Virus record (IMG/VR): IMGVR_UViG_3300045451_000008
Span: 32,001-96,000 of that record
Length of the DNA stretch: 64,000 bases
Reading direction: 5' to 3' (one strand)
Source of the DNA: a virus
Shown: piece by piece, positions 2,678 to 51,848 of the stretch
Numbering within the stretch: the stretch's first letter is position 1
Layout: every line of letters begins with the position of its first letter
The notes under the pieces: model-generated
Told to the model about the DNA's origin: nothing
Database searches by the model: none
Seen by the model: only the letters and a program-made list of their open reading frames with translations
Position numbers and translations under genes: made by a program

Positions 2678-2720
2678 AAGCCCCGTCAGGATTCTCCAGG
2701 TCCTGACGGGGCTTCTTCGT
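2678..2720 (+). terminator. Intrinsic terminator hairpin
   Basis: AAGCCCCGTCAGGA / TCCTGACGGGGCTT stem followed by CTTCGTT. Confidence 0.8.
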
Positions 2721-2733
2721 TCCCTGAACTCAG

Positions 2734-2766
2734 GAGTTGACATATGACAACTCCCCATGAGAGGCT
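2734..2766 (+). promoter_or_regulatory. Palindromic box/promoter copy 2
   Basis: GAGTTGACATATGACAACTC; TTGACA 2737-2742, candidate -10 GAGGCT 2761-2766. Confidence 0.75.
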
Positions 2767-2912
2767 GTACTCAGCAGGGAGAGAGAAGCTCTCCCACTCG
2801 AAAGGACACAGCTCATGCTCGCTCTCGCCATCTACTCGGCCCCCGGTATCGCCATCCTCGCCTGGTCGGTCGCGGACAAGATCCGCTTCAACCTCCGCAA
2901 GAGCGCCTGAGC

Positions 2913-36085: not shown

Positions 36086-37945
36086 GTGGCTCGGTCATTC
36101 GATGACCTGTTCGCAGAGAGGGAAGCGGTTCGCACCACTTCCCTCTCTGACGTGTTCTCGGAAGAGCCCGTCCGACTGGAGGTCTTCGTCAGCGACAAGA
36201 AGTTCCTGGCGCAGCCCAAGCTCTCCGAGATCCAGTACGCGGCCCTGCGCAACATCGAGCGCGTCTACATGCCGGACCTCTACCCGCGCATGGCCGAGGC
36301 CTTCGACCCCTACTGGGGCGAGATCCGGCGCCTGACGAACCTCATCACGCTCCAGTGGGGGAAGGGCTCCGGCAAGGACCACATCTGCCGTCTGGCGTCC
36401 CTGCGCATCGCCTACCTCCTCATGTGCCTGAAGTCCCCGCAGTCCTACTTCGGGACGCCTGAGCAGGACTCCATCCACATGCTTAACATCGCATCGAGCG
36501 CGTCGCAGGCCGACACCGCCTTCTTCCGCCCCATGATCCGTGCGGTCAACAACAGTCCGTGGTTCCGGGACAAGGCCGAGCCCAAGCAGGGCTTCATCGC
36601 CTACGACAAGAACATCGAAGCCATCTCCGGCCACTCCGACTCGGAGACCCAGGAGGGTGGAAACCTCATCCTCGCGGTGCTCGATGAGATCGATGCGTTC
36701 AAGACCAAGGAAGAGCTGTCGCGCCACAACCCCAAGGCCGTGCGTGACTCTCCTCGCTCCGCTGAGTCCATCCTCAAGATGACTCGTACGTCGAGCACCA
36801 CGCGATTCCCTGTCGTCTACAAGAACGTGCGCATCTCCTACCCGCGCTACCAGGGCTCCACCATCCAGAAGCTCACGGCTGAGGGCCAGCGCGACGTGGA
36901 CGCCTACGGTGACACCTCGCGCCACTTCGTCTCCGGTCCCTTCGCCACGTGGGAGGTCAACCCCCTCCGCAAGAAGGAGGACTTCGACACCGAGTTCCGT
37001 GAGGACCCGGTCATGTCCAAGGCCATGTACATGTGCCAGCCCTCCCGGGCCACGGACGCCTACTTCCGCAACATGCCCGCCATCCGTTCGTGCGTCATCG
37101 AGGGGGAGCAGCCCATCACGGTGGAGTACAAGCTCCGCACCCTGCGCAGCGACCTGACCGGGAATCTTGTTCAGACCTGGCAGGCCGAGTTCACCATCGC
37201 TCCGTGGTTCAAGCCCATCGCAGGGGCTCAGTACGCCATGCACGGTGACCTCGCGCTTCGCGGTGACCGTGCAGGCATCTCCATGTCTCACATCAAGCGC
37301 TGGGAGGATCGTCCGGAGACAGTCACTCTCGATGACGGCTCGGAGATCCAGGAGTACAACTCGGTCCCCATCGTGGAGAACGACTTCGTTCTCGCGCTGG
37401 AGTCCAAGCTCAACGAGACCCCTTCTCGCGAGATTCAGATTCGATGGGCGCGAGAGCTGGCTTACGAGCTGTACAAGCTCGGATTCCACATCGCCATGTT
37501 CTCCTTCGACGGCTTCCAGTCCGCTGACTCGATGCAGATTCTGAATCAGCGTGGCATCGAGACCAAGAAGATTTCCGCCGACGTCAACGACGACGTCTGG
37601 AAGGCACTGCGGGATGTCGGCTACGACGACCGCCTCGTGCTCAAGTTCAATCAGCTCCTCTTCGATGAGCTGGAAGCCCTCTCCAAGATTCCCGGTGGCA
37701 AGGTTGACCACCCGCCTTCGGGATCCAAGGACCTGGCGGATGCACTCGCGTGCTCTATCCTGGGGGCTATCGAGGTTGGTGGACAGGAAGACCCGACAGG
37801 GGAAGCCTTCTCCAGCGGCGAGAAGATCTTTGAAGTCGGAGACGCGCTCTCCATGCCTGATGGCTTCGATGATTGGTCCATGGCTTCGAGTGACCATCTC
37901 GGACTTCCAGTAGGCATGAAGGGATCTGGTTTCGGTGGCTACTGA
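36086..37945 (+). CDS. terL: Terminase large subunit
   Basis: QY/Walker A WGKGSGKD, Walker B VLDEID, nuclease HGDLA...SFDGFQ...DHPPSGSKDLADA. Confidence 0.92.
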   Translation: MARSFDDLFAEREAVRTTSLSDVFSEEPVRLEVFVSDKKFLAQPKLSEIQYAALRNIERVYMPDLYPRMAEAFDPYWGEIRRLTNLITLQWGKGSGKDHICRLASLRIAYLLMCLKSPQSYFGTPEQDSIHMLNIASSASQADTAFFRPMIRAVNNSPWFRDKAEPKQGFIAYDKNIEAISGHSDSETQEGGNLILAVLDEIDAFKTKEELSRHNPKAVRDSPRSAESILKMTRTSSTTRFPVVYKNVRISYPRYQGSTIQKLTAEGQRDVDAYGDTSRHFVSGPFATWEVNPLRKKEDFDTEFREDPVMSKAMYMCQPSRATDAYFRNMPAIRSCVIEGEQPITVEYKLRTLRSDLTGNLVQTWQAEFTIAPWFKPIAGAQYAMHGDLALRGDRAGISMSHIKRWEDRPETVTLDDGSEIQEYNSVPIVENDFVLALESKLNETPSREIQIRWARELAYELYKLGFHIAMFSFDGFQSADSMQILNQRGIETKKISADVNDDVWKALRDVGYDDRLVLKFNQLLFDELEALSKIPGGKVDHPPSGSKDLADALACSILGAIEVGGQEDPTGEAFSSGEKIFEVGDALSMPDGFDDWSMASSDHLGLPVGMKGSGFGGY

Positions 37946-39794
37946 CGACGTCAAGAAGAAGAATGAGCTGGCAGTCGTAGACCAGGAGGAAGCGACTGAG
38001 TCTCCCGAGGTGGCCGAGCGTCCCCTGCCCGTAGAGCTGGGTATCGAGATCGGTGTCGAGAGCAATCTCCCCTTCTCGACCCACTACACCCCTCCGATGG
38101 GCTCGCGCCGCAACATCCGGGACGACCTCTACGAGACCATCCGGGAGACCTACGGCCAGGACTTCGGCCCGACTCCTCGTGACCTCGTCTCCATGCGGCG
38201 CCAGGACGGCCAGGCACGTGCCCTGTACCGCCTCCTGACGCTGCCTGTGAAGGCCGCGCTGGCGTCCTCGACCTTCCTCCCCGCCGAGGGTGGAGAGGCC
38301 GAGCAGGAGTACATCGAGCAGGTCTTCAACCTCCCGCCCGAGCACGGCGGCATGAGTGTCACCTTCTCGCACTTCATGAGCCAGCTCCTCATGGGTCTCT
38401 TCGACGGCTTTGCAGCCTTCGAGCAGGTCTACTGGATGCCGACCTTCGGCCCGCTGTCCGGCAAGTACACCCTCAAGAAGCTCGCGTACCGGCCCTCCGA
38501 GACCATCACCTTCGTTACGGACCAGGGCGGCTCCTTCGCAGGCTTCCGCCAGCGTGCTTTCCAGCACGGCAAGCAGATCGACGCGTTCATCCCGGTCGAG
38601 AACTGCTTCTACTACGCGGCGCAGGAGGAGGAGCGCAAGTTCTATGGTGTGAGCTTCTTCCAGTCGGCGTACTACCACTACGACAAGAAGATGAAGATCT
38701 ACTTCACCGCGCACCTCGCAGCCCAGCGCGCCGCGGTCGGTACTCGCATCGGCACCTATCCGGCTGCCGCAGGACCCACGTCCAAGGCCGTCTTCAAGCA
38801 GGCCCTCTCCGAGGTCGCCTTCGCGCAGTTCATGATGATGCCCGAGGGCTACAAGGTCGAGTCGCTCAAGGAGAGCGGGTCTTTCGACTTCCTGAACTAC
38901 ATCAACCACCACAACTCGCAGATGTCCAAGTCGGTGCTCGCGAACTTCTTCGACTCGGACACGGGTGGTGGCTCTGCCGACGCTTCTCTCGTCAACTTCG
39001 GTCAGCCCGGTGACGAGATGTTCACCCTGATGCTTCGTGGCGTCATGGACGACATCGCGAACTCCATCAACCACTACATCATCCCGCGGCTCATCGACTG
39101 GAACTTCGAGGGCGGCAAGTACCCGACCTTCACGTGGGCCAGCTTCACCGACGAGCAGCGCTCGATCATCGCGGATACCTTCAAGACGCTCTCCACGGCA
39201 GGCCAGTCCATGACGGTCACGCCGGAGTTCATGCGTGCTCTGGAGATCCACATGGCCGACGAGATGGGCCTGGAGGTGGACTACGAGGCCGTCGAGGAGC
39301 GCGAGGCCGAGGAGAAGGCTCAGCAGGAAGAGATGATGGCGCAGCAGCAGGCTGCCATGGACGCGCAGAACCAGCCCGTGGACGAGGAAGAGCCGGTGGA
39401 CCCCGCCGACCAGTTCGAGACCTCCGCAGGCTTCTCGAACACCGAGTCCTCCGACGAGATGGTCAAGCTCGCTCGCGGCATGCTGGACGAGGCCGAGCTG
39501 GAGCTGTCGCGCCGGGTGGCCACCAAGGAGGGCTCCGATAAGTTCGGTGCTCCCATCGGCACGCTCATCACCGAGGACAACATCGCGAAGGCGGAGAAGA
39601 ACACCAAGCGCAAGGTCACCCTCGTGCGCCTCATCTCCCTCCAGGCTCAGATCGACGCGGCCAACGAACTCGGCAACGAGCTTGCGGCCAAGGCGGCGCA
39701 GGACTCCTTCAACGAGGCCATGACGGAGTACACGGGTGGTCGCAACGTCGAGTACGTCAAGGAGCAGCTTCGCGCTCTGACCGGCAAGAAGTAG
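37935..39794 (+). CDS. Portal protein (DUF935/Mu gp29-like) with C-terminal extension
   Basis: Follows TerL; GFAAFEQVY, YGVSFFQSAY, IIPRLIDWNF motifs. Confidence 0.88.
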   Translation: MATDDVKKKNELAVVDQEEATESPEVAERPLPVELGIEIGVESNLPFSTHYTPPMGSRRNIRDDLYETIRETYGQDFGPTPRDLVSMRRQDGQARALYRLLTLPVKAALASSTFLPAEGGEAEQEYIEQVFNLPPEHGGMSVTFSHFMSQLLMGLFDGFAAFEQVYWMPTFGPLSGKYTLKKLAYRPSETITFVTDQGGSFAGFRQRAFQHGKQIDAFIPVENCFYYAAQEEERKFYGVSFFQSAYYHYDKKMKIYFTAHLAAQRAAVGTRIGTYPAAAGPTSKAVFKQALSEVAFAQFMMMPEGYKVESLKESGSFDFLNYINHHNSQMSKSVLANFFDSDTGGGSADASLVNFGQPGDEMFTLMLRGVMDDIANSINHYIIPRLIDWNFEGGKYPTFTWASFTDEQRSIIADTFKTLSTAGQSMTVTPEFMRALEIHMADEMGLEVDYEAVEEREAEEKAQQEEMMAQQQAAMDAQNQPVDEEEPVDPADQFETSAGFSNTESSDEMVKLARGMLDEAELELSRRVATKEGSDKFGAPIGTLITEDNIAKAEKNTKRKVTLVRLISLQAQIDAANELGNELAAKAAQDSFNEAMTEYTGGRNVEYVKEQLRALTGKK

Positions 39795-39797
39795 ATC

Positions 39798-40598
39798 GTG
39801 GTGTCCTTCAGTCAGCAGATGGAGGACTCCAGGACGGCACACCTCGCGGTGACCGCTCTGGACGAGGCCGCGCGCCTTCAGATTGCCGCCGCCTACCTGG
39901 CGTGGGATGCCGGGGAGCTGAACGCTCAGACGGTCCGTCACCGGCTTGAGGCCATCGTCCGCATGTCGTACCGCGCAGCCTCTCAAGTGGGCGCAGAGGC
40001 GGCACAGAGGGCCGCAGGAGACATCCCAGGCTGGAAGCCCAAGGCCGTCTTCAACAACGACTACCTCCAGGACCTCCTCAAGGACGTCCGGCGCAACCTC
40101 CGGGAGTACAAGGCCTCCAAGCGCACGGACGCGGACCGGCGCCGAGCAGTGCTCTACACGCAGCACAGCGCCGGGGTGGCGGCACAGCGAGCGTTCACGG
40201 ACTCCACCATCGAGAGCTACGCCAACGTCGAGGCCCTGGGCTACGAGGTCATCAAGATCTGGCTGGCCAACTTCGTGGACAACACTCCCTGCCAGCACTG
40301 CCGTGACCTGCATGGCACTCGTGTGGGTCTCCGTGAGCCCTTCAAGGTGCCGACCAAGACCCTCAAGATCTACCGGGACCTCCAGGGTCCGCCCCGTCAC
40401 CCTCGCTGCCACTGCTATCTCTGCGTCCTCGTGGTCAACCTGGAGAACGCGTTCGAGGAGATCGAGCCGCTCAAGCCGCCGACTACAGCTCCCGTGACGA
40501 TGACTACTCAAGAGGTCAAGAAGATTCCTGCCAAGGTCTTCTCGTCCATCGTCGGAGTGCTCAAGAAGATTCAGAAGACTCTCAAGGGAGCACCGTGA
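39798..40598 (+). CDS. MuF/gp7-like minor head morphogenesis protein
   Basis: KIW...PCQHCRDLHG...PPRHPRCHC. Confidence 0.85.
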   Translation: MVSFSQQMEDSRTAHLAVTALDEAARLQIAAAYLAWDAGELNAQTVRHRLEAIVRMSYRAASQVGAEAAQRAAGDIPGWKPKAVFNNDYLQDLLKDVRRNLREYKASKRTDADRRRAVLYTQHSAGVAAQRAFTDSTIESYANVEALGYEVIKIWLANFVDNTPCQHCRDLHGTRVGLREPFKVPTKTLKIYRDLQGPPRHPRCHCYLCVLVVNLENAFEEIEPLKPPTTAPVTMTTQEVKKIPAKVFSSIVGVLKKIQKTLKGAP

Positions 40599-40819
40599 TC
40601 CAGACGTACTCGCTTCGATTCTTCTTCGACAGTGTTCAGTCAGCAGCTCAGGCCTTGGAGATAGTTCTTCTTGATGCCCGCTCCACGCCTAGGAACTACC
40701 GGATCACAGGCCTGTCCGCACAGCAGATTCTTCAGTCAGGAATTCTTCTTGCTGGGGAACTGGATGAGGTAGCCGCTAAGCTGAAGACCGTGCCAGGAGC
40801 CGTCTGGTACAACGAGTAG
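40595..40819 (+). CDS. Small hypothetical protein
   Basis: Coupled ORF with atypical codon usage. Confidence 0.55.
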   Translation: MIQTYSLRFFFDSVQSAAQALEIVLLDARSTPRNYRITGLSAQQILQSGILLAGELDEVAAKLKTVPGAVWYNE

Positions 40820-40827
40820 GGACCATC

Positions 40828-43800
40828 GTGAATCTTTCTCCGGTTGAGCTGGCTCAGCTCCAGGACCTGGACATCATCGAGCTGGCGAACAAGATTCGCA
40901 AGGTTCGTACTCCGGAGGGCGCCAAGAAGTACGGCGTCCCCATCGGCACCGTCATCACCAAGGACATGGAGGACAAGCTCCAGGGCAAGTCCGGGTCGGG
41001 CGCCCCGGCTTCCACCATCCAGTCTGGCGCCAACAACTTCGGCTCCAACTCGGGCTCGTCGGCCACCCCCAAGGGTGCTGCCCCTGCTCCGGCCAACTCC
41101 CTCAACGCGCAGGGCCAGACCAAGAACAGCCGACCCAAGGTCGAGAAGGAGCAGCAGCAGCTCAAGGGCCAGGGCGGACAGCCCGCAGGCTCCAGCGCTG
41201 CCCAGCAGACCGCCGTGGCTGACGCCGTGCAGGCCAACCTGACGGTGACCGACTCCACCATCTCCGGCCCGCTCAAGTTCTCGGTCGGTTCGGCCCAGTA
41301 CTCCGCGCCCTCGGGCTCTGTGCTCATCAAGTCGAAGAAGGGCACGGGCGGTGGCGCCTACGTCCGCACTCCGGACGGCACCATCCACGCCTTCAACCAG
41401 GAGGGTGAGATCACTCTCCCCGACAACCTGGGCGACATCCTCTCGCTGAAGTTCACCAAGAACTTCAAGAGCGACGCCAAGTACGCCAAGGCGGAGTTCG
41501 ACAACGACGACACCGAGACCTTCCCGGAGCTGGCCGCAGGCGCGGTGCTCCAGTCGGACGGCCAGGACATGTTCACCAAGGGTGAGGATGGCTTCTGGAC
41601 CCACAAGGACATCGACATCAGCCTCACTGACGAGGACCTGGCGCCGATGTTCGAGAGCGGTGAGCTGACGCTCAAGGAGACGCCGGTCGGCTTCAACGAG
41701 GCAGGCAAGGCCGACTTCAAGAACATGTCCAAGGACGAGTTCAAGGACTACCTCTACTCGAAGAAGGAGGGCGACAAGCTCTACCTCAACGGGACCGAGG
41801 TCGTCTTCAACGGAGAGAGCTGGCTGAGCGAGAACGGTGCGGACTTCTCCGAGGATGAGATGGTCGTCTTCCGCAGCAAGGTCACTGAGGAGCCCAACAC
41901 CGAGGAAGCTGGTGCTCCGAGTGCCACTCCTGAGGCCAACAAGAACACGCTCAAGGTGGGCGACCTCGTCAGCACGCCCGAGGAAGAGAAGAATCTTCCG
42001 GTCGGCGCTGTCATGGACGTCCGCCTCGGTGGCGGGAAGAAGAAGACTCCGCACACCAAGACCTCCGAGGGAAAGTGGACGGAGCCTGGAGGCAGTGCTG
42101 TAGAGACCCTGGGGTACAACCTCTCCATGGGGCACGTCACGGTCAAGAGCCTTCCGGAGGACTCGAACAGCTCTGCTCCCGACCCCACTACTGCCGTGGA
42201 CCTTCCGGCGCCGGGCTCTCCTCTGGCTGAGGAGACGAAGGTCAAGTCGCTGGACAACATCGCTGGCTACCCCGTGGGCACCAAGCTCCAGTTCACGCTG
42301 CCTTCGGTCGGTGGTTCGGAAGGCTTCTCCGACACTTACACCAAGATCGGGGACAACCAGTGGGCCAGTGCTGACCCCACGTTCAAGGACACTCCGGTCT
42401 CCGATTCTTCTTTCAAGAGCGCGATTGACCAGGGTCTCCTGACTGAGGTCTCTGTCCCAGAAGCCCCTGACCCGGACTACACCCTCACTCCTCAGGACCT
42501 GATGGAGATGAAGGACGGCGACGGCATCGACGTCGGCGGAGAGTTCTACGTCAAGAGCAACGGTGTGTGGCTCGACTCGTCTGGCTCGGACAACGACGAC
42601 GAGGCGTTCGCTGAAGACCTCGAAGAGGGCAACGTCGAGAAGATCAACGACGTGCTCGCGGCGGAGGCGCTGGAGATCGCTCTGGAGGCCAAGGCTCAGT
42701 TCGAGGAGAACGAGCGTCAGATCAAGAAGCAGCAGCAGGCCGAGAAGAAGGCCGCTGAGGAGGAGTACCAGACCCAGGCACAGCTCCAGGCGAACATCGA
42801 GAAGCAGCAGGCTGAGGCCGCCGCCAAGAAGAAGGCTGACCAGGAGAAGGCTGCCGCCGACGCCGCCAAGGCCGCAGCAGAAGCCGAGGTCGCGGCTCAG
42901 GCTGCCAAGACGGCCAAGTACCAGCAGGACCTCGCCAAGGCCAATGCCGAGCAGCCCAAGGTGGGCAAGATTCTCGTCACCGTGGAGGAGATGGACTCGC
43001 TCTCCACGGGCACCAAGGTCAAGTACACCTCTATCGCAGGCGCTTCCACGGAGTACGTGCACCAGTCGGATGGTTCCTGGCTCTCTGACTCCGGCACCGT
43101 CGCCTACACCAATTCCTTCTACGCCGCGGTCAACACCGATCTGGTCTCCATCTCGGCACTGCCGGACACGAGCCCGGCGCCGGAGCCGCAGAAGAGCGGC
43201 GACGACGGAACCTTCCTGATTGGTGGCAAGCCGTACTCCGCCAAGGAGGTCAAGCGGCTTCACGCAGTGCTGTCGATGCACCACGGTCCCGTTTCGCTCG
43301 GAATGAAGATCCTTCCGGACAGTCCGTTCGCTGACAAGAACGCGATGGACGAGCTGAAGGCACTGGCTCTCGCGGACTTCCCCAAGCTGGGGATCAAGCC
43401 CGGTATCGTCGCGTACCTCAAGAACATCATGGACAACCAGAAGTCCGAGAAGTCGGTGCCGACTCCCTCTTCGGATGGCGACTTCCAGGTCAACGGGAAG
43501 GTTTTCAGCTCGGACGACTTCCAGGAGGCTCTGACCTCTCTGGAAGACCACCCCGGCTTCCAGATCTCCTACGGTCTCAAGGCCGTGCCCAACAACCCTT
43601 TCGTGGACAAGGACAACCAGGGTGCGCTGAAGCAGCTCGCTCAGGATGCGTTCCCCAACCTCAAGCCCAAGCCCGCGGTCGTGGCCTACCTCAAGAAGCA
43701 GCTCGGCTACCAGGACGAGGAGGAGAGCGCCCAGGAGAGCGAGGGTGCCTCGACGGGTACTTCCATCTACTTCGGCTCCCGCACGCCCAAGAGCGGCGTC

Positions 43801-46800
43801 CAGGGAGTGGACGGTGGAGAGTTCGACCAGGCCGACGTGGAGTCCGCCATCGCCATCCTCCAGAACTACCCGGGCAAGCTCTACAAGAACGAGCTGAACA
43901 AGCAGGGCAACCCGCTGGGTGCTCTCGACCCCAACGCCATCGTCGGCTTCCACAAGGACAAGCTGGAGGGCAAGGCCGCGTACATCAAGCTCCTCCAGAC
44001 CAAGCTCGACAAGTCCAAGACCAAGACGCCGATGGTCGCGCCCGAGGTCCCGGACGTCAACGCTGACTGGGTGGACCCGAACGCACCGGAGGAGAACAAG
44101 AATCTTGTTCCTCCGGGAGGCTTCAAGGACCTCGCCGTGGGATCCGAGGTCTCGCTCAACTTCCCGGCCAGTCCCGAGATGGATCCGCAGCCCTACCTCA
44201 AGGTCTCGGACAACGAGTGGAAGAACACTCTCTACAACACCGTCCACTCTGAGGACGACCTCGTGGTCGCTCAGGAGTACGCCAACGGCTCTGAGTTCTC
44301 CATCACCAAGGTCGGTGCGCCCGCGGCGCCCGAGAAGATCGGTACCGTGGACGACCCGATGTCGGTCGAGGACGTCAAGAACCAGGGCATCGGTGCTCAG
44401 GTCCAGACCGTGAGCAAGAGCGGAAAGACCATCACCTTCACCAAGGTCAGTGAAGTTTCCTGGGACGGTGACAACCCCGATTACCTGGACATGGATTCGG
44501 CGGCTATCGAGATTCTCGCCAAGAAGAATCAGGTCCAGCTCATCAAGCCCGCGGAAGAGTCTTCGGGTGAGAAGTCCGACGAGGAGAAGGCCACTGACCT
44601 CAAGGCTGAGCTTTTCGCCTACCCCGCGGGCACCAAGGCCAAGCTCAATCTCCTCAGCGAGACGGTCACCAAGCAGGAGGACGGCTCCTGGAAGTCCGAC
44701 AAGGGCACCACGTACCCCGAGGGTGCCCTTGAGAACGGCTGGGATGGTCTGGGCGGGGAGTTCATCAGCTCGCCCACTCCCGAGCCTTCTCAGGCTTCCA
44801 AGGACACCGGCAAGGCTCTGGAGCTGGATGGCTACCCGGTCGGGCACAAGGTCTTTTCTCAATTCGGAGATATCACCCTCACCAAGGAGTCGGATGATTC
44901 CTGGAAGCACAGCGATGGCACGATGCTTACCTCGTTCCAGCTCGCTGGTCTCTGGGATGCTTACCAGTTCGAGCACATCGGTTCCGACACGGCTTCCCCG
45001 AACGAGAAGCCTCTCGCGGAGGACATCAACTTCTGGACCTCCAGCATCGACTACTCCAGTGACTGGATGGAGCTTGAGGGGACCATTGACGAGCTGCCGG
45101 TGGGCACCATTCTCAAGAACGAACTGGGGTCTTCGATGCAGAAGAAGTCTGAGTTCGAGTGGGTGTTCGAGGGAGGCACTCCGACCAACATCGCGCACAA
45201 CTCGACCACCATCGCGCAGGACTGGGAAGTGGACCCCTGGACTGTCGAGAAGGTCGGAGACGGTCTCTACGTCGAGCCGCTGCCGAAGAACAACGTCACG
45301 GACTTCTTCGCGAGCCTTCAGGGCCTCAACACCCCTAACGCGGCTACGGCTACTCCCGAGACTCCTGCCGCCAAGAAGCCGACCGAGTTCGGTGAGCCCA
45401 TGACGGCGGACGACTTCCTCACGCAGCCGGTGGGCTCGGTCATGCAGCTCGCTGACGACAGTGGCTTCTACACCAAGGCGATCAACGGCACGTGGGAGGA
45501 CCTGGACGACGGACACGTCCTCACGACGGCCAACGTCGCCACGCTCGTCTCCAACGAGGGTGCTCTCCTCTTCGAGGTGGGCAAGCCGGACGTGCCGGAC
45601 TACGCCGCAGCTCCCGGTGCTGTCCAGAGCAAGCAGACCGGTGACCCTGACACCAGCCCCAACATCAACGAGTCCGGTCTCACGCCGGGCAAGTACTCGA
45701 CGGAGAACGGCAAGGCCTACATGGTCGTCTCCGCCAACGGCTCCGGTGTCTACGTGACCTCCAAGGGTGAAGTCACTGCCATCAACGCGGCCAAGGTCAA
45801 GGCGAACCACAAGGCGGGAATGACCACCTACGGTGGCGTCGTGGAGAACCCCCCGGTGCCTTCTTCGGAGAGCACTGTCGAGGCGACCAAGAAGAAGGTC
45901 GTCAACGACGTCATCCCGAGCGGTACCTACTACAACGGTCCGTCGAACGACCCCAAGTCCACGGTCTACATCGTGGATGGGGACGCGGTGAAGATCTACA
46001 AGAACGGCGCCGAGCCCAAGGTCGGCAAGCAGTCTTCGATCCAGTCGGTCTTCAAGAAGGGCCAGCTCCTCGACCAGCAGGGCAACTCCATCTTCCCGAA
46101 GGATTACACCGGCTCTGTCTCGCTCCTGGGACAGGAGACCACGATTCCGGCCCTCATCCTCGCGCAGAAGGCCATCGACAACCACACGGGCTCCGCATTC
46201 GATTCCAAGCTCCAGTACAGCATCAAGCAAGCCGGTGTCTTCTACGAGGGCCAGGTCGATCTGGAGACCTTCAAGGCCAACATCGACTCCATGCTCAAGG
46301 ACGTGGACAAGAGCGACCCGGACACGGGCGCTGCCAACCTCTTCGAGTGGGATGGTCTCGGCAACGCGACCTTCCCTGAGTCCATGGTCGGAGTCAACAA
46401 GGGCTACAAGATCTCTGAGTACAACGCCTTCATCAAGCAGGCGTCGCTCTCCATCGGCGGTGGCAACATCATCGGTCAGCACACGAACGCGATGTCCAAG
46501 ACCCAGAAGGGTCAGTGGATCAACGCGTTCAACAACGGTGATTTCAAGGCCATGTATCAGATCGAGGTCGCCGCGGCTGCCTCGAAGAATCTTCCTCACG
46601 CTGCCGGTTACCTTCACCCGGGCTATGAGGGAAGTCCCTCGACCAACAAGGTGCAGTGGGGCGCCGCTGTTCCCGGTGAGATTCCTGCCGGTGTCAAGGT
46701 GGACAAGTTCAAGCTGCCGGAGACCCTGAGCTGGTCGAACCCCAATGAAATTCCCAAGGAGGTAGTCGATAACTACCTCGTCGCGGCTCAGATGCAGAAC

Positions 46801-49800
46801 CCCGAGTACCTGACTCTCGCTGAGCGTCGTCAGTGGGCAACTAGCCACTACAACGCCTCGATTGCCTACAACCCGGCTTCTCCCACGAACACCGTGAACA
46901 AGCTCTCGCTCCAGGCTCAGTCGCTGAAGGCATCCGGCGCCGCTCCTCTCACCGACTCTCCCAAGTGGACTGAGATCGAGACGATGGAGAAGCCCAAGCT
47001 CTACGTGAACCTCTTCGAGCAGAGCAAGTTCCCCACCGAAGGCTGGACGGCTACTGCCGCGGAGCAGTGGTACGAGGACAACAAGGCGGAGCTGGACGAC
47101 TACGTCACGAACAACTCGACGGCCAAGGAACAGGGCATCACCACCAAGTCGCTCAGCCTCAACAAGTACGTGACGCAGCAGTACGTCAAGATGTACTTCG
47201 AGGACAAGGAGAGCGCTGCCGCCGCTGAGGCGCTCATCCCCGTCTACACCAAGGACCCCACCCAGACGGTCAAGGGTTCGACCAACCCGGTGCACCAGTA
47301 CACCGACCAGTTCGGTAACAAGTACTTCTTCAAGCCGCGCGCCGACACCAAGCTGGACAAGTACCGCTCCGAGGTCGAGCACATGGGCAACGAGATGTCC
47401 CGTGCTCTGGGCTTCAACGCATCCAAGTCCAGCCTCCAGACCCTCAACGGTCAGTACGGCCAGCTCCAGTCCGACGCTGGTGGCGTCGGTGACCTTATGA
47501 ACGCCGACTACTCCAAGCAGTCGCTGACGACCCTGAAGGACGTCGCCGCGGAGCACATCCTGGACTGGTTCCTGGACAACGACGACACCAAGGGCGACAA
47601 CGTCCGGGTCATGGCCAACGGTCATGTCGTCGGTATCGACAAGGGTCGCGCCTTCAAGAGCTACGGCGCATGGAAGGGTCTCTCCGGAGACGCTGCCATG
47701 AACTCGAACGCCAACACCGTCTACAGCCAGATGTACGCAGCGATCAAGTCCGGGAAGATTTCCAAGGCGGACGCCGACGAGATCTACAAGGCGACGCACG
47801 CTCGCGCCCTGAAGATGCAGAAGTTCAGCGACGCCCGCCTCGATGCACTTCTCGACCAGGGCATGGCCAACCGCACGAGCTACGACGTGCCCTACAAGCT
47901 CTCGGACGGCACCTACGCTTCGGACTCGCTGGATGGCCTGAAGATGGCTGTCAAGGACCGCAGGGACCGTCTGGCGGAGGACTTCGACTCCATGTGGTCG
48001 AAGATCTACCAGCAGGCCGGGTACGGAGATCTTCCGGAGCCCGAGGTGTCCCCGCTGGGAGACGTCATCTCCGGACTCGGTCACGAGAAGCTCCACACGG
48101 AGGTCTTCGAGGCGAACACCCACGGCAAGTCCACGCTCATCAACAGCTCCAGCGTCGTCGGCGGCACCGTGCACCTCTGGGTGGAGAAGAACAAGAAGGC
48201 CGACAAGCTCCAGGTCAAGGGAGAGATGTACGTCGGTGACCTGAAGCAGCAGGAGCTTCTGGGATTCTTCTCCAAGCACACCGAAGGTCTTTCCGACGAG
48301 AAGATGCAGAGCGGATTCAACTCCGACGAGTTCGGTGAAGGAATCGTCAACGCGGCCAAGACGATCAATCACCACGCGCTCGATCAGAAGTACAACATGT
48401 CCACGGTCAACAACTTCTTCGGCATCGAGAAGAACATCGACAAGGACCTGGATGCCTGGACTCCGAACCTGGAGGCCAACTCCACGTTCATGAACGAGCC
48501 CGCCTACAAGTTCCCCTCGGGCACCCTTGTGCCCATGGTTCACGTGGACCAGTACAAGCTCATGCTGGACTACTACAAGCCGAAGGCTGCCTCTGTCTCG
48601 GCTGCCTACGACAGCCAGGGCAAGGTTGCGATCATCGAGCCTTACTCTCCGCTGAGCCTTCCCGTGAAGGACATGGAGGAGCAGTACGGCAAGACCGATG
48701 GTTCTTCTCTCGTCAAGCTCTCGAACAACTCGTTCCTCTACAAGGACTCCGCCAACAGCTCCGTCTCCACGGTCTCGGAGAAGGAAGCCATGGCCCTCAT
48801 GGACAACGGGGCCGACCCGGGATGGTCTTCCGTCTCGGCTCCCAAGGTGGTCACTCCCAACCTGCCGTACACCGTCAAGCTCAACGAGAAGACTCACGAG
48901 AAGGTTGCTGCCTACGACAGCCGACTCAACCTGAAGGTCGAGATGGAAGCGAGCGTCGGACAGAACGGCGCCCGTGGCAAGGAGTTCGAGATCACTCTCG
49001 ACACGGGTGAGAAGATCTACTGGCGCAACGCGGGCCAGACCGGTACGGCGATGGGCCAGCACGGCAAGCTCACGTTCGTCATGCCGGATGCCGGGGACTC
49101 CCAGTCGTCGCAGGCCTCGATGGCGCGTATCCAGAACGTGCTCAGCGACCTGGGCATCGACAACGAGCCCGCCGACGACACCACCGCTCGCAACATCTAC
49201 TGGCGCGAGATGTACGGCGTCATGATGAACCGCAAGCACAAGCCGAACTCCCCCAACGAGCGGGCTCAGAAGGCCATCCAGGCGAAGATCGCTGAGATCA
49301 AGAGCACCGAGAGGAAGTTCATCGAGGAGTTCGGTCGTCTCGTCTCTCCTGAGGAGGAGAACGAGTTCTGGACCAAGGTCTACTCGGATGAGTGGCCTAA
49401 GGAGGTTGCCAACCTCTTGCAGACCGAGGGCTACCTTCCCAAGTACGACCACCTCAACATTCAGAACTCTGAGCTGGAGTCGGGTAAGCCGTACTGGGAT
49501 CGCTTCGACGTCTCGGATGACGAGTACGAGGACGCGGTGCTCTACCACGAGAGTTCCAGCACCACTGAGACCATCATCGAAAGCGGTGGGCTCTTCTCGG
49601 GTGAGGAGCGCGTGCGTCAGCTCGGCTTCATCGCGACGCCTAGTGGGCTGTACGGTTCGACTTCCCCTCTCCAGGACCAGAGCAACGGTTCGTCTCATGT
49701 CATCTACACCCGGGTCCGCAAGGTGGGCACCGCTGTTCCGTCCAACGTGCCCTACGTCGTGGACCCCAAGCTCATGAAGCGCACGCGCATGTATGCGCTT

Positions 49801-50100
49801 CCCACTGACCTGTACGGCATCCTCTCGGCTCGAAAGGGCAAGTCGCTCTCCGGCGTCAAGGATGTGGTGGAGGAGTTCAATGGCAACTCCAAGAACGAGG
49901 TCATGCCTCCCAACGCTGTGTCGGTCCTCGACGGGATGATGGTGATTCTCTTCGACAACGCCGCGGAACGGAACGCCATGATTCAGCGCCTGAAGGAGCT
50001 GAGCATCGAGCAGATTCGCGGAGTGCCTGTCGAAGATAGACTCGTCATGCGGGTGGATGCCCAGAAGGCAATCAAGAAGATCAAGGAGTCGGGCAACTGA
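40828..50100 (+). CDS. Giant (3090 aa) multidomain head-module protein: repeat arrays, HipA/PI3-4-kinase-like domain, probable ADP-ribosyltransferase domain
   Basis: Uninterrupted ORF with phage-like codon usage; YFFKP...E...LDWFLDNDDTKGDN...VGIDKGRAF; LYH...IIESGGLFSGEER...IYTR...NEV. Confidence 0.85.
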   Translation: MNLSPVELAQLQDLDIIELANKIRKVRTPEGAKKYGVPIGTVITKDMEDKLQGKSGSGAPASTIQSGANNFGSNSGSSATPKGAAPAPANSLNAQGQTKNSRPKVEKEQQQLKGQGGQPAGSSAAQQTAVADAVQANLTVTDSTISGPLKFSVGSAQYSAPSGSVLIKSKKGTGGGAYVRTPDGTIHAFNQEGEITLPDNLGDILSLKFTKNFKSDAKYAKAEFDNDDTETFPELAAGAVLQSDGQDMFTKGEDGFWTHKDIDISLTDEDLAPMFESGELTLKETPVGFNEAGKADFKNMSKDEFKDYLYSKKEGDKLYLNGTEVVFNGESWLSENGADFSEDEMVVFRSKVTEEPNTEEAGAPSATPEANKNTLKVGDLVSTPEEEKNLPVGAVMDVRLGGGKKKTPHTKTSEGKWTEPGGSAVETLGYNLSMGHVTVKSLPEDSNSSAPDPTTAVDLPAPGSPLAEETKVKSLDNIAGYPVGTKLQFTLPSVGGSEGFSDTYTKIGDNQWASADPTFKDTPVSDSSFKSAIDQGLLTEVSVPEAPDPDYTLTPQDLMEMKDGDGIDVGGEFYVKSNGVWLDSSGSDNDDEAFAEDLEEGNVEKINDVLAAEALEIALEAKAQFEENERQIKKQQQAEKKAAEEEYQTQAQLQANIEKQQAEAAAKKKADQEKAAADAAKAAAEAEVAAQAAKTAKYQQDLAKANAEQPKVGKILVTVEEMDSLSTGTKVKYTSIAGASTEYVHQSDGSWLSDSGTVAYTNSFYAAVNTDLVSISALPDTSPAPEPQKSGDDGTFLIGGKPYSAKEVKRLHAVLSMHHGPVSLGMKILPDSPFADKNAMDELKALALADFPKLGIKPGIVAYLKNIMDNQKSEKSVPTPSSDGDFQVNGKVFSSDDFQEALTSLEDHPGFQISYGLKAVPNNPFVDKDNQGALKQLAQDAFPNLKPKPAVVAYLKKQLGYQDEEESAQESEGASTGTSIYFGSRTPKSGVQGVDGGEFDQADVESAIAILQNYPGKLYKNELNKQGNPLGALDPNAIVGFHKDKLEGKAAYIKLLQTKLDKSKTKTPMVAPEVPDVNADWVDPNAPEENKNLVPPGGFKDLAVGSEVSLNFPASPEMDPQPYLKVSDNEWKNTLYNTVHSEDDLVVAQEYANGSEFSITKVGAPAAPEKIGTVDDPMSVEDVKNQGIGAQVQTVSKSGKTITFTKVSEVSWDGDNPDYLDMDSAAIEILAKKNQVQLIKPAEESSGEKSDEEKATDLKAELFAYPAGTKAKLNLLSETVTKQEDGSWKSDKGTTYPEGALENGWDGLGGEFISSPTPEPSQASKDTGKALELDGYPVGHKVFSQFGDITLTKESDDSWKHSDGTMLTSFQLAGLWDAYQFEHIGSDTASPNEKPLAEDINFWTSSIDYSSDWMELEGTIDELPVGTILKNELGSSMQKKSEFEWVFEGGTPTNIAHNSTTIAQDWEVDPWTVEKVGDGLYVEPLPKNNVTDFFASLQGLNTPNAATATPETPAAKKPTEFGEPMTADDFLTQPVGSVMQLADDSGFYTKAINGTWEDLDDGHVLTTANVATLVSNEGALLFEVGKPDVPDYAAAPGAVQSKQTGDPDTSPNINESGLTPGKYSTENGKAYMVVSANGSGVYVTSKGEVTAINAAKVKANHKAGMTTYGGVVENPPVPSSESTVEATKKKVVNDVIPSGTYYNGPSNDPKSTVYIVDGDAVKIYKNGAEPKVGKQSSIQSVFKKGQLLDQQGNSIFPKDYTGSVSLLGQETTIPALILAQKAIDNHTGSAFDSKLQYSIKQAGVFYEGQVDLETFKANIDSMLKDVDKSDPDTGAANLFEWDGLGNATFPESMVGVNKGYKISEYNAFIKQASLSIGGGNIIGQHTNAMSKTQKGQWINAFNNGDFKAMYQIEVAAAASKNLPHAAGYLHPGYEGSPSTNKVQWGAAVPGEIPAGVKVDKFKLPETLSWSNPNEIPKEVVDNYLVAAQMQNPEYLTLAERRQWATSHYNASIAYNPASPTNTVNKLSLQAQSLKASGAAPLTDSPKWTEIETMEKPKLYVNLFEQSKFPTEGWTATAAEQWYEDNKAELDDYVTNNSTAKEQGITTKSLSLNKYVTQQYVKMYFEDKESAAAAEALIPVYTKDPTQTVKGSTNPVHQYTDQFGNKYFFKPRADTKLDKYRSEVEHMGNEMSRALGFNASKSSLQTLNGQYGQLQSDAGGVGDLMNADYSKQSLTTLKDVAAEHILDWFLDNDDTKGDNVRVMANGHVVGIDKGRAFKSYGAWKGLSGDAAMNSNANTVYSQMYAAIKSGKISKADADEIYKATHARALKMQKFSDARLDALLDQGMANRTSYDVPYKLSDGTYASDSLDGLKMAVKDRRDRLAEDFDSMWSKIYQQAGYGDLPEPEVSPLGDVISGLGHEKLHTEVFEANTHGKSTLINSSSVVGGTVHLWVEKNKKADKLQVKGEMYVGDLKQQELLGFFSKHTEGLSDEKMQSGFNSDEFGEGIVNAAKTINHHALDQKYNMSTVNNFFGIEKNIDKDLDAWTPNLEANSTFMNEPAYKFPSGTLVPMVHVDQYKLMLDYYKPKAASVSAAYDSQGKVAIIEPYSPLSLPVKDMEEQYGKTDGSSLVKLSNNSFLYKDSANSSVSTVSEKEAMALMDNGADPGWSSVSAPKVVTPNLPYTVKLNEKTHEKVAAYDSRLNLKVEMEASVGQNGARGKEFEITLDTGEKIYWRNAGQTGTAMGQHGKLTFVMPDAGDSQSSQASMARIQNVLSDLGIDNEPADDTTARNIYWREMYGVMMNRKHKPNSPNERAQKAIQAKIAEIKSTERKFIEEFGRLVSPEEENEFWTKVYSDEWPKEVANLLQTEGYLPKYDHLNIQNSELESGKPYWDRFDVSDDEYEDAVLYHESSSTTETIIESGGLFSGEERVRQLGFIATPSGLYGSTSPLQDQSNGSSHVIYTRVRKVGTAVPSNVPYVVDPKLMKRTRMYALPTDLYGILSARKGKSLSGVKDVVEEFNGNSKNEVMPPNAVSVLDGMMVILFDNAAERNAMIQRLKELSIEQIRGVPVEDRLVMRVDAQKAIKKIKESGN

Positions 50101-50399
50101 TGAACGTCACTGAAAAGAAGATTTCAGACTTCTTCGGACCGGCTCTTCGAGTCCTCTCCGACCGGAGCAACCTGGACGCCATCGTCGTCTGGAAGCTCCG
50201 TGAGGATGAGGGGGAGGTCTTCCTGGACCTCTGGCCTCACCCCTCTCAGGTCATCTCGCTGGTCCTTCCCGACGACATCGAGGAGACCGAGGGTCGCTGG
50301 ACCTTCTCGGCTGAGGGCACTCGCTGGCAGTTCCGGGCCTTCCCTGGCGCCAAGGAGTTCGCGCACGCGTTCAAGAAGGCGCAGCGCAACCGTGGCTAA
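50100..50399 (+). CDS. Small protein coupled to the giant gene (candidate immunity/partner)
   Basis: TGATG overlap. Confidence 0.65.
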   Translation: MNVTEKKISDFFGPALRVLSDRSNLDAIVVWKLREDEGEVFLDLWPHPSQVISLVLPDDIEETEGRWTFSAEGTRWQFRAFPGAKEFAHAFKKAQRNRG

Positions 50400-50691
50400 G
50401 TACCTTCTGCACCAGGCCCGCAGTGGCGAAGTCCTCGGTGTGTGGTTCGAGAACGATTCGGCCTACGTGCCCACCCTCCAGGGAGACCGTGCTCAGACCT
50501 ACGGTCAGGCAGTCATGGACTCGCGGGGTCCGGCCACGGAGTGGGACGACTACGCCGAGCAGCTCGCCAACAAGTCCCCGGCGCCGAACTACATGTGGGA
50601 CCAGTTCAGCCACTACTCCACAGTCCTCTCAGAAGTTCTCGCTGGCGCACGACAGGCCACCGAGAAGCCTGAAACGGGAGAAGACGAATAG
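50392..50691 (+). CDS. Small protein (candidate immunity/partner)
   Basis: Overlapping start; followed by a terminator. Confidence 0.65.
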   Translation: MAKYLLHQARSGEVLGVWFENDSAYVPTLQGDRAQTYGQAVMDSRGPATEWDDYAEQLANKSPAPNYMWDQFSHYSTVLSEVLAGARQATEKPETGEDE

Positions 50692-50708
50692 CCGCCTATC
50701 GTCACCAT

Positions 50709-50747
50709 GAAGCCCGCCCCTCTATCCACTAGAGAGGCGGGCTTCGC
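50709..50747 (+). terminator. Terminator hairpin
   Basis: GAAGCCCGCC / GGCGGGCTTC. Confidence 0.75.
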
Positions 50748-50777
50748 TCGTTAGAAAGTTGGTTGCTAGTAGTGAGT

Positions 50778-51848
50778 ATGAACGGCCTTGCGATTCTCCC
50801 GACTTCAGGGGAGAGCTTTGTGAAGCTGTCGCGCTCCAAGTCGGGCACGACCTTCAAGAAGCACATCCTGACGAAGGGCGACCTCCTCTACCCCGACGTG
50901 GTCGGTGGCAAGGTCGTGATTGACGACGCGTTCTTCGCGCAGCTCACGGCGAACTTCAACTCCAAGGTCTGCTCTCACGTGCAGATCCCGGTGGCTGGCG
51001 CGAACAATGAGCACACGGAAGACCCTGACCGGAATGTCGGTGAGGTCATCGGGCTCTCTGTCGATGGCGACAAGATGTACGCCATTCTCGACGTCCGCGA
51101 CGAGAAGGCTGCACCCAAGTTCGGCAAGACGTACCTCGGTGCTTCGGCCATGCTGCACCTCAACTACACCGATACTCGCGACGGGAAGAAGAAGGGTCCG
51201 ACCCTCCTCCACGTCGCCGTAACCAACCGGCCCCACATCGTGGACCTGGAGGATTACGAACTGCTCGCGGCATCCGCTGGGGGCAAGGAACAGGCCGTTT
51301 TTCTGACTGCCGCTCGAAAGGAAACTTCCATGGACCTGGATGCCCTCATCGCCGCCCTCAAGGACGAGCACGGGATCGACGTTCCCGCCCTCCAGCTCTC
51401 CGCCGCTGAGGCCGAGGGTGCCGTGAAGCTCTCCAACGGCCTCCGCGACGCGCTGGTCAACAACGGCTTCGTCAAGCTCTCCGCCGACCAGGAGGTGGGC
51501 GCCGACGAGATCCTCGGTGCCGTCGCGGACCTCGCCACCAGCAAGGTCGAGCTGTCCAACCGTCTCGACGTGCTGGAGCGCACCTCGAAGGAGGACGCCG
51601 CCAAGGCGCACGTCGAGGACCTCGTCTCCAAGGGCTTCATCGCCCCGGTCCAGCGGGACGCCATGGTCGAGCTTCGCCTCTCCAACACGGACCTCTTCGA
51701 CAAGCTCATCCCGGAGAAGCCCCTCGTCAAGCTCTCGGGCGGGGAGTCGGGCTTCAACTTCCCGGGTGAGACCCGCGACGAGGCGAACGACGCGGAGATC
51801 GCGCGGCTCTCGAACATGGCCAAGGACCTCGGCATCGTCATCGCCTGA
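50778..51848 (+). CDS. Prohead maturation protease fused to scaffold
   Basis: H(TED)...VGEV, GASA, GPTLLHVAVTNRPHI (Mu gpI-like); helical C-terminal scaffold. Confidence 0.85.
   Translation: MNGLAILPTSGESFVKLSRSKSGTTFKKHILTKGDLLYPDVVGGKVVIDDAFFAQLTANFNSKVCSHVQIPVAGANNEHTEDPDRNVGEVIGLSVDGDKMYAILDVRDEKAAPKFGKTYLGASAMLHLNYTDTRDGKKKGPTLLHVAVTNRPHIVDLEDYELLAASAGGKEQAVFLTAARKETSMDLDALIAALKDEHGIDVPALQLSAAEAEGAVKLSNGLRDALVNNGFVKLSADQEVGADEILGAVADLATSKVELSNRLDVLERTSKEDAAKAHVEDLVSKGFIAPVQRDAMVELRLSNTDLFDKLIPEKPLVKLSGGESGFNFPGETRDEANDAEIARLSNMAKDLGIVIA

Follow-up and report, generated by a model that had tools for sequence, protein, structure and literature searches.

A 3090-residue phage head-module protein with a kinase fold and a predicted ADP-ribosyltransferase domain, a candidate for delivery into the host

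Here we describe a giant protein of 3090 residues, encoded in the head module of an uncultured phage, whose last ~1200 residues almost certainly contain a kinase fold with its catalytic residues present and quite likely contain, further towards the C-terminus, an ADP-ribosyltransferase (ART) fold. The gene lies on the plus strand of a 64-kb stretch of DNA (henceforth referred to as the window) that comprises bases 32001-96000 of the 132,847-base IMG/VR virus record IMGVR_UViG_3300045451_000008, rated 100% complete by CheckV. As an earlier account made from the letters of the window (henceforth the preliminary description) had stated, a 9.3-kb open reading frame (ORF) sits between the genes for a Mu-type portal and a MuF-like protein, which lie upstream, and the gene for the prohead protease, which lies downstream; these neighbours are assigned by PHROG and Pfam matches. 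The explanation that we favour, with reservations, is that the giant protein is a capsid-delivered cargo composed of a kinase and an ART and served by two partner proteins encoded in small ORFs directly downstream, a composite explanation in which we infer enzyme activity, substrates, packaging, ejection and partner binding alike. Coordinates of all features are given in Table 1.

The kinase domain was recognised by its fold. Residues 1891-2600 (module A) were folded by AF2 with a 51-row alignment, and the resulting model (mean predicted local distance difference test (pLDDT) 90.7, predicted template modelling score (pTM) 0.65) was compared with 48,161 chains by VIA-align. The match covered model residues 246-511 and the best 50 rows were all kinases, headed by PI4K-II alpha (Z 15.0 with 223 aligned residues and a root-mean-square deviation (rmsd) of 3.8, and Z 14.6) and CtkA of H. 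pylori (14.2), and including MavQ of Legionella (13.1), Vps34 (12.2), actin-fragmin kinase (11.9), CotH (11.7), HipA (11.4) and Fam20 (11.0). Similar results were obtained with Foldseek against the PDB, where module A had 21 matches at E<=1e-3 and all 50 rows listed were kinases, with PI3K, Vps34 and mTOR first and then PKA, GRK, ROCK, actin-fragmin kinase and ADCK3. The preliminary description had placed a kinase-like segment at ~47260-48020 on the strength of motifs (the lysine of YFFKP, a helix-C-like glutamate, a catalytic loop and a DFG-like element) and had named structure prediction followed by Foldseek as the way to check it; the fold match coincides with this segment and the motifs exist. 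K2169 lies in YFFKP, D2253 and N2258 lie in DDTKGDN and D2271 lies in GIDKG. K2169, D2246, D2253, D2271 and K2272 are invariant both in 67 sequences, where N2258 is also invariant and E2184 is found in at least 90%, and in a wider 51-row set, where N2251 and G2269 are also invariant and N2258 is not. We take these residues to include the ATP-binding lysine, the helix-C glutamate, the catalytic-loop aspartate (followed by asparagine in D-x4-N spacing) and the metal-binding aspartate, roles that were assigned from the order of the motifs and general knowledge of kinases and not by superposition.

The relatives of module A provide a link to named families, since HipA_C (PF07804) matched in 28 of 51 (best E 3.7e-8), PI3_PI4_kinase (PF00454) in five and Fam20C in two, and the kinase segment of the window itself matched zero Pfam families at E<=0.01. 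An atlas feature search with the kinase returned unnamed clusters (0.96) and a LepB_N cluster (0.93), which serve as leads only; LepB_N is presumably a lipid-kinase domain. Judging from the model, the kinase is real, belongs to the HipA/CtkA/PI3-PI4-kinase branch and is probably active. Because most bacteria are without phosphoinositides, and because HipA and CtkA are protein kinases, a protein is favoured over a lipid as its substrate by analogy. The kinase module is present as a single copy in this genome. A second, free-standing kinase of 271 residues was observed in a related 124-kb phage (L021:9962-10774, on the contig of L010), far from the head module, and scored 27.2 bits on Pfam PI3_PI4_kinase against a cut-off of 27.1.

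The second enzyme was recognised in a model of residues 2601-3090 (module B), also folded by AF2 (29-row alignment, mean pLDDT 87.0, pTM 0.78). Over model residues ~295-481 the best VIA matches were the DarT structures 7omu (Z 9.5), 8baq (9.3), 7omv (9.2) and 7yk3 (8.8), aligned over 152-160 residues with an rmsd of 3.6-4.3 and 10-12% identity, scores that are only moderately above background, since VIA itself notes that models with no clear match commonly reach a best Z of 7-8. SopF (Z 6.5), Tpt1 (5.8), CopC (5.7), OspC3 (5.6) and CteC (5.1) came after DarT, and the top 8 rows all belonged to the ART superfamily. The weak rows that Foldseek returned from the PDB for module B included DarT1 and DarT (probability 0.75, TMt 0.48-0.50, E 0.4), SopF and PARP1, and those of high probability from BFVD were small uncharacterised proteins of iridoviruses, mimiviruses and baculoviruses (IIV-6 422L at probability 1.00 and TMt 0.57), which fit a passage of PMC9503650 that reports a DarT-related family in arthropod DNA viruses. 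An atlas feature search with module B returned unnamed clusters (0.92) and DUF5846 (0.91), again leads only.

Conservation within the ART domain is centred on E3024, which opens a strand in the model and is invariant in 23 of 23 rows of the ART-domain alignment (which includes MuF-fused forms from small phages and phage Pan1, described below) and present in 56 of 57 rows of a wider set. R2892, D2894, G2920, R2930, S2946, D2950, G2954 and R2962 are kept in at least 90% of the 23 rows, and R2928 in 56 of the 57. The preliminary description had read an H-aromatic-E layout from LYH, IYTR and NEV in this region; the aromatic (F in 38 and Y in 18 of 57) and the glutamate of NEV, which is E3024, stood up, and the histidine did not, as H2907 is H in 18, S in 17 and G in 10 of 55. 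With the histidine conserved in 18 of 55 only, the H-Y-E (ARTD) reading of the domain was ruled out. Passages of PMC11543638 state that DarT2 keeps H-Y-E with E160 as the catalytic glutamate and that DarT1, in which serine replaces tyrosine, relies on R35, R52, D54 and the catalytic E152, and also name S63. Since DarT1 itself departs from H-Y-E, loss of the histidine does not exclude a DarT-like enzyme, and the conserved glutamate of the window protein is accompanied by arginine, serine and aspartate as in DarT1. A likeness to the ART of T4 Alt, which the preliminary description had cited as delivered with the DNA, was not borne out: PF03496 (ADPrib_exo_Tox) had no match in the window protein, and the fold is closest to that of DarT. 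There was no Pfam match for the ART sequence family in the window protein or in 29 relatives, and no PADLOC or NCBIfam match, and since no sequence family matches, the ART call is made at the level of the fold only. The evidence for it is moderate and weaker than that for the kinase, which has Pfam-matching relatives, a ranking that the preliminary description had given as well. On the basis of the models we lean only slightly towards a DarT-like enzyme as opposed to another branch of the ART superfamily.

The giant protein belongs to a large family. When the last 1200 residues were searched exhaustively with HMMER, 614 representative proteins matched at E<=1e-3, 199 of them at E<=1e-30, and it follows from the 614 matches that the plus-strand coding of the giant gene is no chance open frame. 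Members are mostly 2400-4200 residues long and are named ‘hypothetical’ wherever a source gives a name, and the longest contigs that carry them are mostly 110-137 kb. Their matches resolve two separable modules, A at residues ~1891-2540 (core 2130-2530) and B at ~2710-3087, and in related loci the kinase and module B always share one ORF, the size of which varies from 1135 to ~3500 residues. To judge from the sequence, the first ~1890 residues consist of repeats and coiled coil, without a recognised enzyme, and the enzymes are confined to the last ~1200; what had been described as a multi-effector protein is thus one with two enzymes at its C-terminal end, and the label does not extend to the larger N-terminal part. 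Searches with the protein itself returned little: against Pfam only FtsH_ext at E 0.08 (nothing else at E<=1), against PHROGs none, and against PADLOC and NCBIfam only a weak match to tolA_full. There was no match for the last 1200 residues in the PDB (phmmer) or for either half of the protein in 50,697 phage records (tblastn), and PDB profile searches with three family alignments, one of them of the ART domain only, yielded nothing relevant. In bacterial genome data the giant form was found only on phage-sized contigs or short contigs of metagenome-assembled genomes (MAGs), and forms of ~25% identity, apparently prophage-borne, were found in complete Desulfosarcina chromosomes and in assemblies of Desulfocarbo, Ectothiorhodospira, Bryobacterales, Terriglobia and others.

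The evidence that bears on delivery comes from relatives in which the same enzymes are part of head proteins. In four of four small-phage forms (L023, L025, L027 and L030; 1135-1591 residues) the kinase and module B are fused to an N-terminal Phage_Mu_F domain, with scores of 63.1, 52.4, 65.5 and 29.8 bits, respectively, against a cut-off of 29.6, and three of the four match phrog_6577, a family of unassigned function in PHROG, at E <= 5e-160. Three cultured phages, among them the mycobacteriophages McProf and Aikoy, carry related proteins. In Pan1, a cyanophage of Pseudanabaena, gp15 (‘head morphogenesis protein’, 927 residues) contains Phage_Mu_F and module B (hhalign 98.9%, E 1.3e-17). In McProf, gp54 (L032, BK061309, 1185 residues), encoded directly after the portal gene, contains a VG15 minor-capsid domain, a kinase homologous to that of the window (hhalign 99.6%, E 1e-23) and an ADPrib_exo_Tox ART, and in Aikoy, gp15 (L033, OR159654, 1340 residues) contains a weak HipA_C match and ADPrib_exo_Tox. 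We observed that the depositors of the last two annotate only the ART or a ‘minor capsid and ADP-ribosyltransferase fusion’ and leave the kinase unannotated. Within the lineage of the window, the short forms L012 and L022 show a MuF match upstream of the ORF and none inside it, and the short forms of ~1100-1600 residues in general retain the enzymes but lack most of the repeats. Passages of PMC5512222, PMC5576092 and PMC9503650 describe MuF (the SPP1 gp7 family) as a head component bound to the portal and propose MuF fusions as injected effectors. Since the same enzyme pair occurs fused to this portal-bound head component, packaging is the most economical reading, and by analogy with the fused relatives we regard it as reasonably probable that the giant protein is packaged and ejected.

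A possible means of loading was found in the N-terminus of the giant protein, where a 23-residue peptide is shared with the portal (14 of 23 residues identical, pairwise E 7e-7). A strict pattern made from this peptide occurs exactly twice in the six frames of the 64-kb window, once in the C-terminal region of the portal and once in the giant protein; the core of the peptide reads G-x-P-I-G. Within the first 120 residues the pattern was found in 58 of 134 family proteins of at least 2000 residues, in 1 of 33 proteins of 1000-1999 residues and in 0 of 134 shuffled sequences, and related loci have the peptide in the portal, in the giant protein or in both. The shared peptide appears from these counts to be real and could act as a loading tag.

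The two small ORFs that follow the giant gene were surveyed in 18 loci (the window and 17 others), a set from which L009 and L015 (which duplicate L010 and L014), L018 (truncated), L021 (the free-standing kinase) and L023-L031 (small-phage forms with a different layout) had been left out. Both ORFs are present and coupled as the preliminary description had noted, the first to the giant gene by an ATG at 50100 that overlaps the TGA of the latter and the second to the first by an 8-nt overlap. A relative of the second was found in the same place in 14 of the 17 other loci and a relative of the first in 9 of 17, and three further ORFs at the first position form a separate cluster. Neither has a match in Pfam or PHROG, PDB profile searches gave nothing relevant, and a weak PADLOC row (PD-Lambda-5_A, E 0.007) for one of them was disregarded. 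We compared their variation with that of neighbouring proteins in Mantel tests, which use pairwise identity over 10-12 related loci and are liberal for related sequences. In plain tests the first ORF correlated with module B at 0.81, module A at 0.74, the protease at 0.58 and the decoration protein at 0.55, and the second with module A at 0.81, the protease at 0.72, module B at 0.67 and the decoration protein at 0.59. In partial tests the first ORF kept its correlation with module B given A (r 0.51, p 0.001) and lost that with module A given B (0.17, p 0.15); the second kept its correlation with module A given B (r 0.61, p 0.0002) and lost that with module B given A (-0.03); the two ORFs given module B were uncorrelated (0.03). 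The second ORF is separated from module A by module B and the first ORF, so that its co-variation with module A goes beyond simple linkage. The pattern fits one inhibitor or chaperone partner per enzyme, and from such co-variation we would put the chance that the small ORFs encode cognate partners a little short of even.

We propose the following sequence of events. The giant protein would be made late, together with the head proteins, and loaded into the prohead near the portal, with the variable N-terminal ~1890 residues most likely acting as a spacer and as the part that docks to the capsid or portal. In the producing cell the ART module would have the first small protein as its partner and the kinase module the second, and these small proteins would probably keep the enzymes silent or aid loading. 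Along with the DNA, the giant protein would then be released into the next host, where the kinase would phosphorylate host targets and the ART would ADP-ribosylate host nucleic acid or protein, with takeover of the host or disarming of its defences as the outcome. A narrower version of this scheme, which we consider unlikely, makes it an offensive variant of DarT: a capsid-delivered ART would modify host nucleic acid at entry together with the co-delivered kinase, each enzyme would have its own inhibitor of ~99 residues, and a cargo of 330 kDa would be loaded through a portal-mimicking peptide with no MuF fusion.

Several results weigh against capsid delivery of two enzymes with dedicated partners, in addition to the DarT scores that are only moderately above background and the liberal Mantel tests already described. 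In searches of Pfam, PHROG, NCBIfam and PADLOC, neither the kinase segment nor the ART segment of the window was assigned to any family. Neither the PDB nor BFVD yielded a Foldseek match to module B at E<=1e-3, so that the structural check that the preliminary description had named for this region came out in favour of the ART fold in VIA (DarT at Z 8.8-9.5) and not in Foldseek. A profile of the ART domain alone found nothing in the PDB at E<=10, which leaves the ART call without sequence support, and E3024 is to be regarded as a putative catalytic glutamate. Matches to a macrodomain, NADAR or ADP_ribosyl_GH (ARH) were found nowhere in the 132.8-kb genome, and hence nothing points specifically to DNA ADP-ribosylation with enzymatic reversal. 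In the window MuF is a separate gene, not fused to the giant protein (which has no Phage_Mu_F match in Pfam), and lies just under the Pfam cut-off (Phage_Mu_F E 2.5e-6, 28.7 bits against 29.6). In L020 and L016 no MuF was detected by tblastn or in the first 1200 residues of the giant ORFs, and MuF therefore cannot be a universal loader. The first small ORF is already tied to module B by its neighbouring position alone. Finally, we found neither virion proteomics nor direct proof of packaging, cleavage or ejection for any member of the family.

The separate MuF gene and the failure to detect MuF in some relatives, together with the inferential basis of packaging, are also what speaks for the enzymes acting late, in the producing cell only, and never being delivered. 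Their targets would then be proteins or nucleic acids of host or phage, modified as assembly proceeds, for instance to control head maturation or to block late-acting defences, and their position in the head module would reflect mere co-expression; that a kinase of this kind can work outside a head protein is evident from the free-standing L021 kinase. This account leaves unexplained the covalent fusion of the enzyme pair to MuF in all four small-phage forms, of module B to MuF in Pan1 and of kinase and ART to a minor-capsid domain in McProf gp54, as well as the strictly conserved slot between portal/MuF and protease and the conserved portal-like peptide at the N-terminus, and we regard it as rather unlikely. 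MuF-fused relatives, found in bacterial chromosomes as apparent prophages, suit a MuF-type polymorphic toxin used in competition between bacteria or phages, with the small ORFs as classical immunity genes that protect lysogens or the producer, and the first small ORF indeed co-varies with the ART module as in cassette exchange. Against such a toxin, the 132.8-kb genome has no match to Phage_integrase or Resolvase (tyrosine integrases and serine recombinases, other recombinase types being outside the search), from which we judge the phage to be probably virulent, with probably no lysogen to protect; passages of PMC5576092 report MuF toxins only in temperate phages; and the C-terminal 1200 residues are conserved as a block over hundreds of relatives, unlike hypervariable toxin tips. 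We therefore consider a competition toxin distinctly unlikely.

The size of the protein, its extensive N-terminal half of repeats and coiled coil and its lack of cysteine would also be in keeping with a mainly structural or scaffolding protein of the capsid interior (a core, an ejection conduit or an organiser of DNA) in which the enzyme-like domains are inactive binders; the scan of the ORFs that lie from the portal to the major capsid gene recognised no dedicated gene for scaffolding, and the window's own domains fall below all family thresholds. Pseudoenzymes, however, usually lose their catalytic residues, and here the invariant residues are the catalytic ones (ATP-binding lysine, catalytic-loop aspartate, metal-binding aspartate and ART glutamate), and it is the enzymes that the short forms of ~1100-1600 residues retain and most of the repeats that they lose. 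A purely structural role is thus very improbable. Capsid delivery of a kinase and an ART remains the explanation that we prefer.

The general kind of protein is already described, namely large multi-enzyme proteins encoded among head genes and proposed to be injected. Passages of PMC5512222 and PMC9503650 present polyvalent proteins and MuF-fused effectors as large multidomain proteins of head loci that are proposed to be packaged and injected. The giant protein is like them in its size, in its place among head genes beside portal and MuF, in carrying an ART and a further enzyme, and in having relatives that are true MuF fusions: two effector-type domains, with kinase and ART folds, are found in one polypeptide encoded within a portal-MuF-protease-capsid module. 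It differs from MuF-fused polyvalent effectors in that MuF is a separate gene in this phage, and from polyvalent proteins in its kinase, which has a full fold of the HipA/PI3-PI4 type, whereas theirs is given in a passage of PMC5512222 as a truncated Ser/Thr/Tyr kinase without the C-lobe. Immunity proteins encoded next to the toxin neutralise each of the MuF toxins Bxa and Apk2; Bxa has two, as shown experimentally, one of them an ADP-ribosyl hydrolase (passages of PMC11699363). These toxins share with the giant protein the head-morphogenesis locus, the C-terminal enzyme and the small adjacent ORFs; they are single-enzyme MuF fusions of ~300-1000 residues from temperate phages, in contrast to two enzymes in 3090 residues in a phage that is probably virulent and whose genome, unlike the case of Bxa, has no ADP-ribosyl hydrolase. 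T4 Alt, which a passage of PMC5512222 describes as a head-packaged ART that is injected along with the DNA, is alike in concept, but it is far smaller, is an exotoxin-type ART with R-S-E and is without a kinase.

Among the structural matches, DarT and DarT1 of DarTG are free toxins of a bacterial defence system, whereas the domain described here is part of a giant phage head protein, has no detectable sequence similarity to them and is without a DarG macrodomain or NADAR partner. PI4K-II alpha, CtkA, MavQ and HipA (4pla, 3akj, 7m7a and 4pu3) share the fold and the conserved Lys, Glu, D-x4-N and D-x-G residues with the kinase domain, which differs in being only 10-14% identical to them, below Pfam threshold and embedded in a 3090-residue phage protein. 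McProf gp54 and Aikoy gp15 are similar in layout, in that a protein of the head carries a homologous kinase and then an ART at its C-terminus, with a small ORF directly downstream, and differ in length (1185-1340 residues) and in their ART, which is of the unrelated ADPrib_exo_Tox family. In the literature, with supplementary files outside our coverage, we found nothing relevant on a HipA-like kinase in MuF or capsid-injected phage proteins, and the word ‘kinase’ is absent from PMC5576092 and PMC11699363. What is specific here is the split MuF, the statistics of the portal-like peptide, the co-variation of one small gene with each module and the link to cultured phages with an unannotated kinase.

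Injected phage proteins decide the first minutes of an infection, and apart from T4 Alt, N4 vRNAP and a small number of MuF toxins they have received little study. The family described here is large (614 representative clusters) and occupies a fixed slot in a lineage of uncultured phages of ~110-137 kb, with shorter MuF-fused relatives in prophages of many phyla. The pairing of kinase and ART recurs even with an unrelated ART family, which suggests that both activities serve one process. With a DarT-like fold, the phage would possess the counterpart of a known bacterial weapon against phages, and the portal-like peptide could be a simple tag for loading capsids. Cultured relatives exist in Pan1, Aikoy and McProf.

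Table 1. Features of the giant gene and its surroundings (window positions; residues refer to the giant protein unless stated)
Feature	Position	Strand	Basis
Portal, 619 aa	37935..39794	+	phrog_113 E 2.8e-40; Pfam Portal_Mu E 1e-34
23-aa peptide in portal, portal residues 526-548	39510..39578	+	shared with giant protein
MuF-like minor head gene, 266 aa	39798..40598	+	8 PHROG head-morphogenesis/minor-head families, best E 1.2e-8
Conserved 74-aa ORF between MuF and giant gene	40595..40819	+	tblastn relatives in same slot
Giant gene, 3090 aa, GTG start	40828..50100	+	614 representative relatives of last 1200 aa
23-aa peptide in giant N-terminus, residues 24-46; candidate capsid/portal docking tag	40897..40965	+	
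Ala/Lys/Glu/Gln-rich coiled-coil-like stretch, residues 613-709	42664..42954	+	tolA_full E 3.1e-5, far below cut-off (NCBIfam); composition
Three tandem ~95-aa repeats, residues ~785-1075	43180..44052	+	z 24.6, 16.1, 14.0, 9.3
Module A, residues 1891-2600: helical N-part, kinase domain, alpha/beta C-part	46498..48627	+	
Protein-kinase-like domain, residues 2136-2401, HipA/CtkA/PI3-PI4-kinase type	47233..48030	+	fold match, invariant residues
Module B, residues 2601-3090: beta-rich domain, helical domain, ART-like domain	48628..50097	+	
Predicted ART-fold domain, residues 2895-3081, closest to DarT	49510..50070	+	VIA fold match; E3024 invariant
First small ORF, 99 aa, translationally coupled; candidate ART-module partner	50100..50399	+	TGATG overlap with giant stop
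Second small ORF, 99 aa from GTG 50392; candidate kinase-module partner	50392..50691	+	8-nt overlap with first ORF
GC-rich stem-loop, 39 nt, between second small ORF and protease	50708..50746	+	-36.3 kcal/mol, z -4.25
Prohead protease, 361 aa	50763..51848	+	phrog_328 E 1.2e-7; Pfam Mu-like_Pro E 5e-6

The N-terminal part of the giant protein holds, besides the features of Table 1, a low-complexity stretch and further copies of a small Trp-containing unit at residues ~676-751 and ~1216-1360 (z 7-14). Repeats were scored by Smith-Waterman local alignments of windows against 200 shuffles, and a BLAST self-comparison of the protein detected none. Cysteine is absent from all 3090 residues. An antisense ORF of 2988 residues (window 40732-49698, minus strand) runs in register with the giant gene and was rejected as a codon-usage shadow, because the giant gene has zero TTA, CTA and TCA codons; neighbouring genes have 3 in 2354, so that ~3.8 would be expected.

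The stem-loop that follows the small ORFs was as stable in 0 of 200 shuffles and is without a U-tract. A terminator had been described at this place, of which the strong hairpin was confirmed and the rest was not: a consensus terminator scan of 40300-51000 called no plus-strand terminator, and a canonical intrinsic terminator was ruled out, the U-less hairpin being all that is there. It may be a variant terminator, an element of RNA stability or a processing site.

The genes for the decoration protein and the major capsid protein come after the protease, and the order of a 619-residue ORF, portal, MuF, 74-residue ORF, giant gene, small ORFs, protease, decoration protein and capsid protein is kept in related loci L002-L020. 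In addition to its PHROG and Pfam matches the MuF-like gene has a match to NCBIfam phageSPP1_gp7 below cut-off (E 0.02). The 74-residue ORF has relatives in the same slot in L002-L004, L006-L008, L010, L011 and L014/L015 (tblastn E 1e-12 to 4e-22) and no match in Pfam, PHROG, PADLOC or NCBIfam; its identity is 39-53% in no fewer than nine related loci, and the module may include it as a further component. The closest matches in bacterial assemblies were, in a Holophagaceae MAG, a contig of 4.7 kb and, in a Cellvibrionaceae MAG, a contig of phage size; both may be binning artefacts and establish no host.

Three further observations concern the surroundings of the module. The 619-residue ORF just upstream of the portal (36086-37945), in the slot typical of the large terminase, has ~46-56% identity to its counterparts in related loci and no PHROG match. 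In L002 the portal match is interrupted by ~3.8 kb (L002:810-4627) that holds a second N-terminal region of the giant type, including the shared peptide (at 1040), and may represent an insertion in the portal region or a rearrangement. In L008 and L014 an extra ORF of 411 (L008:13606-15532) and 512 residues (L014:13558-16243), respectively, both of one family, lies between the small ORFs and the protease.

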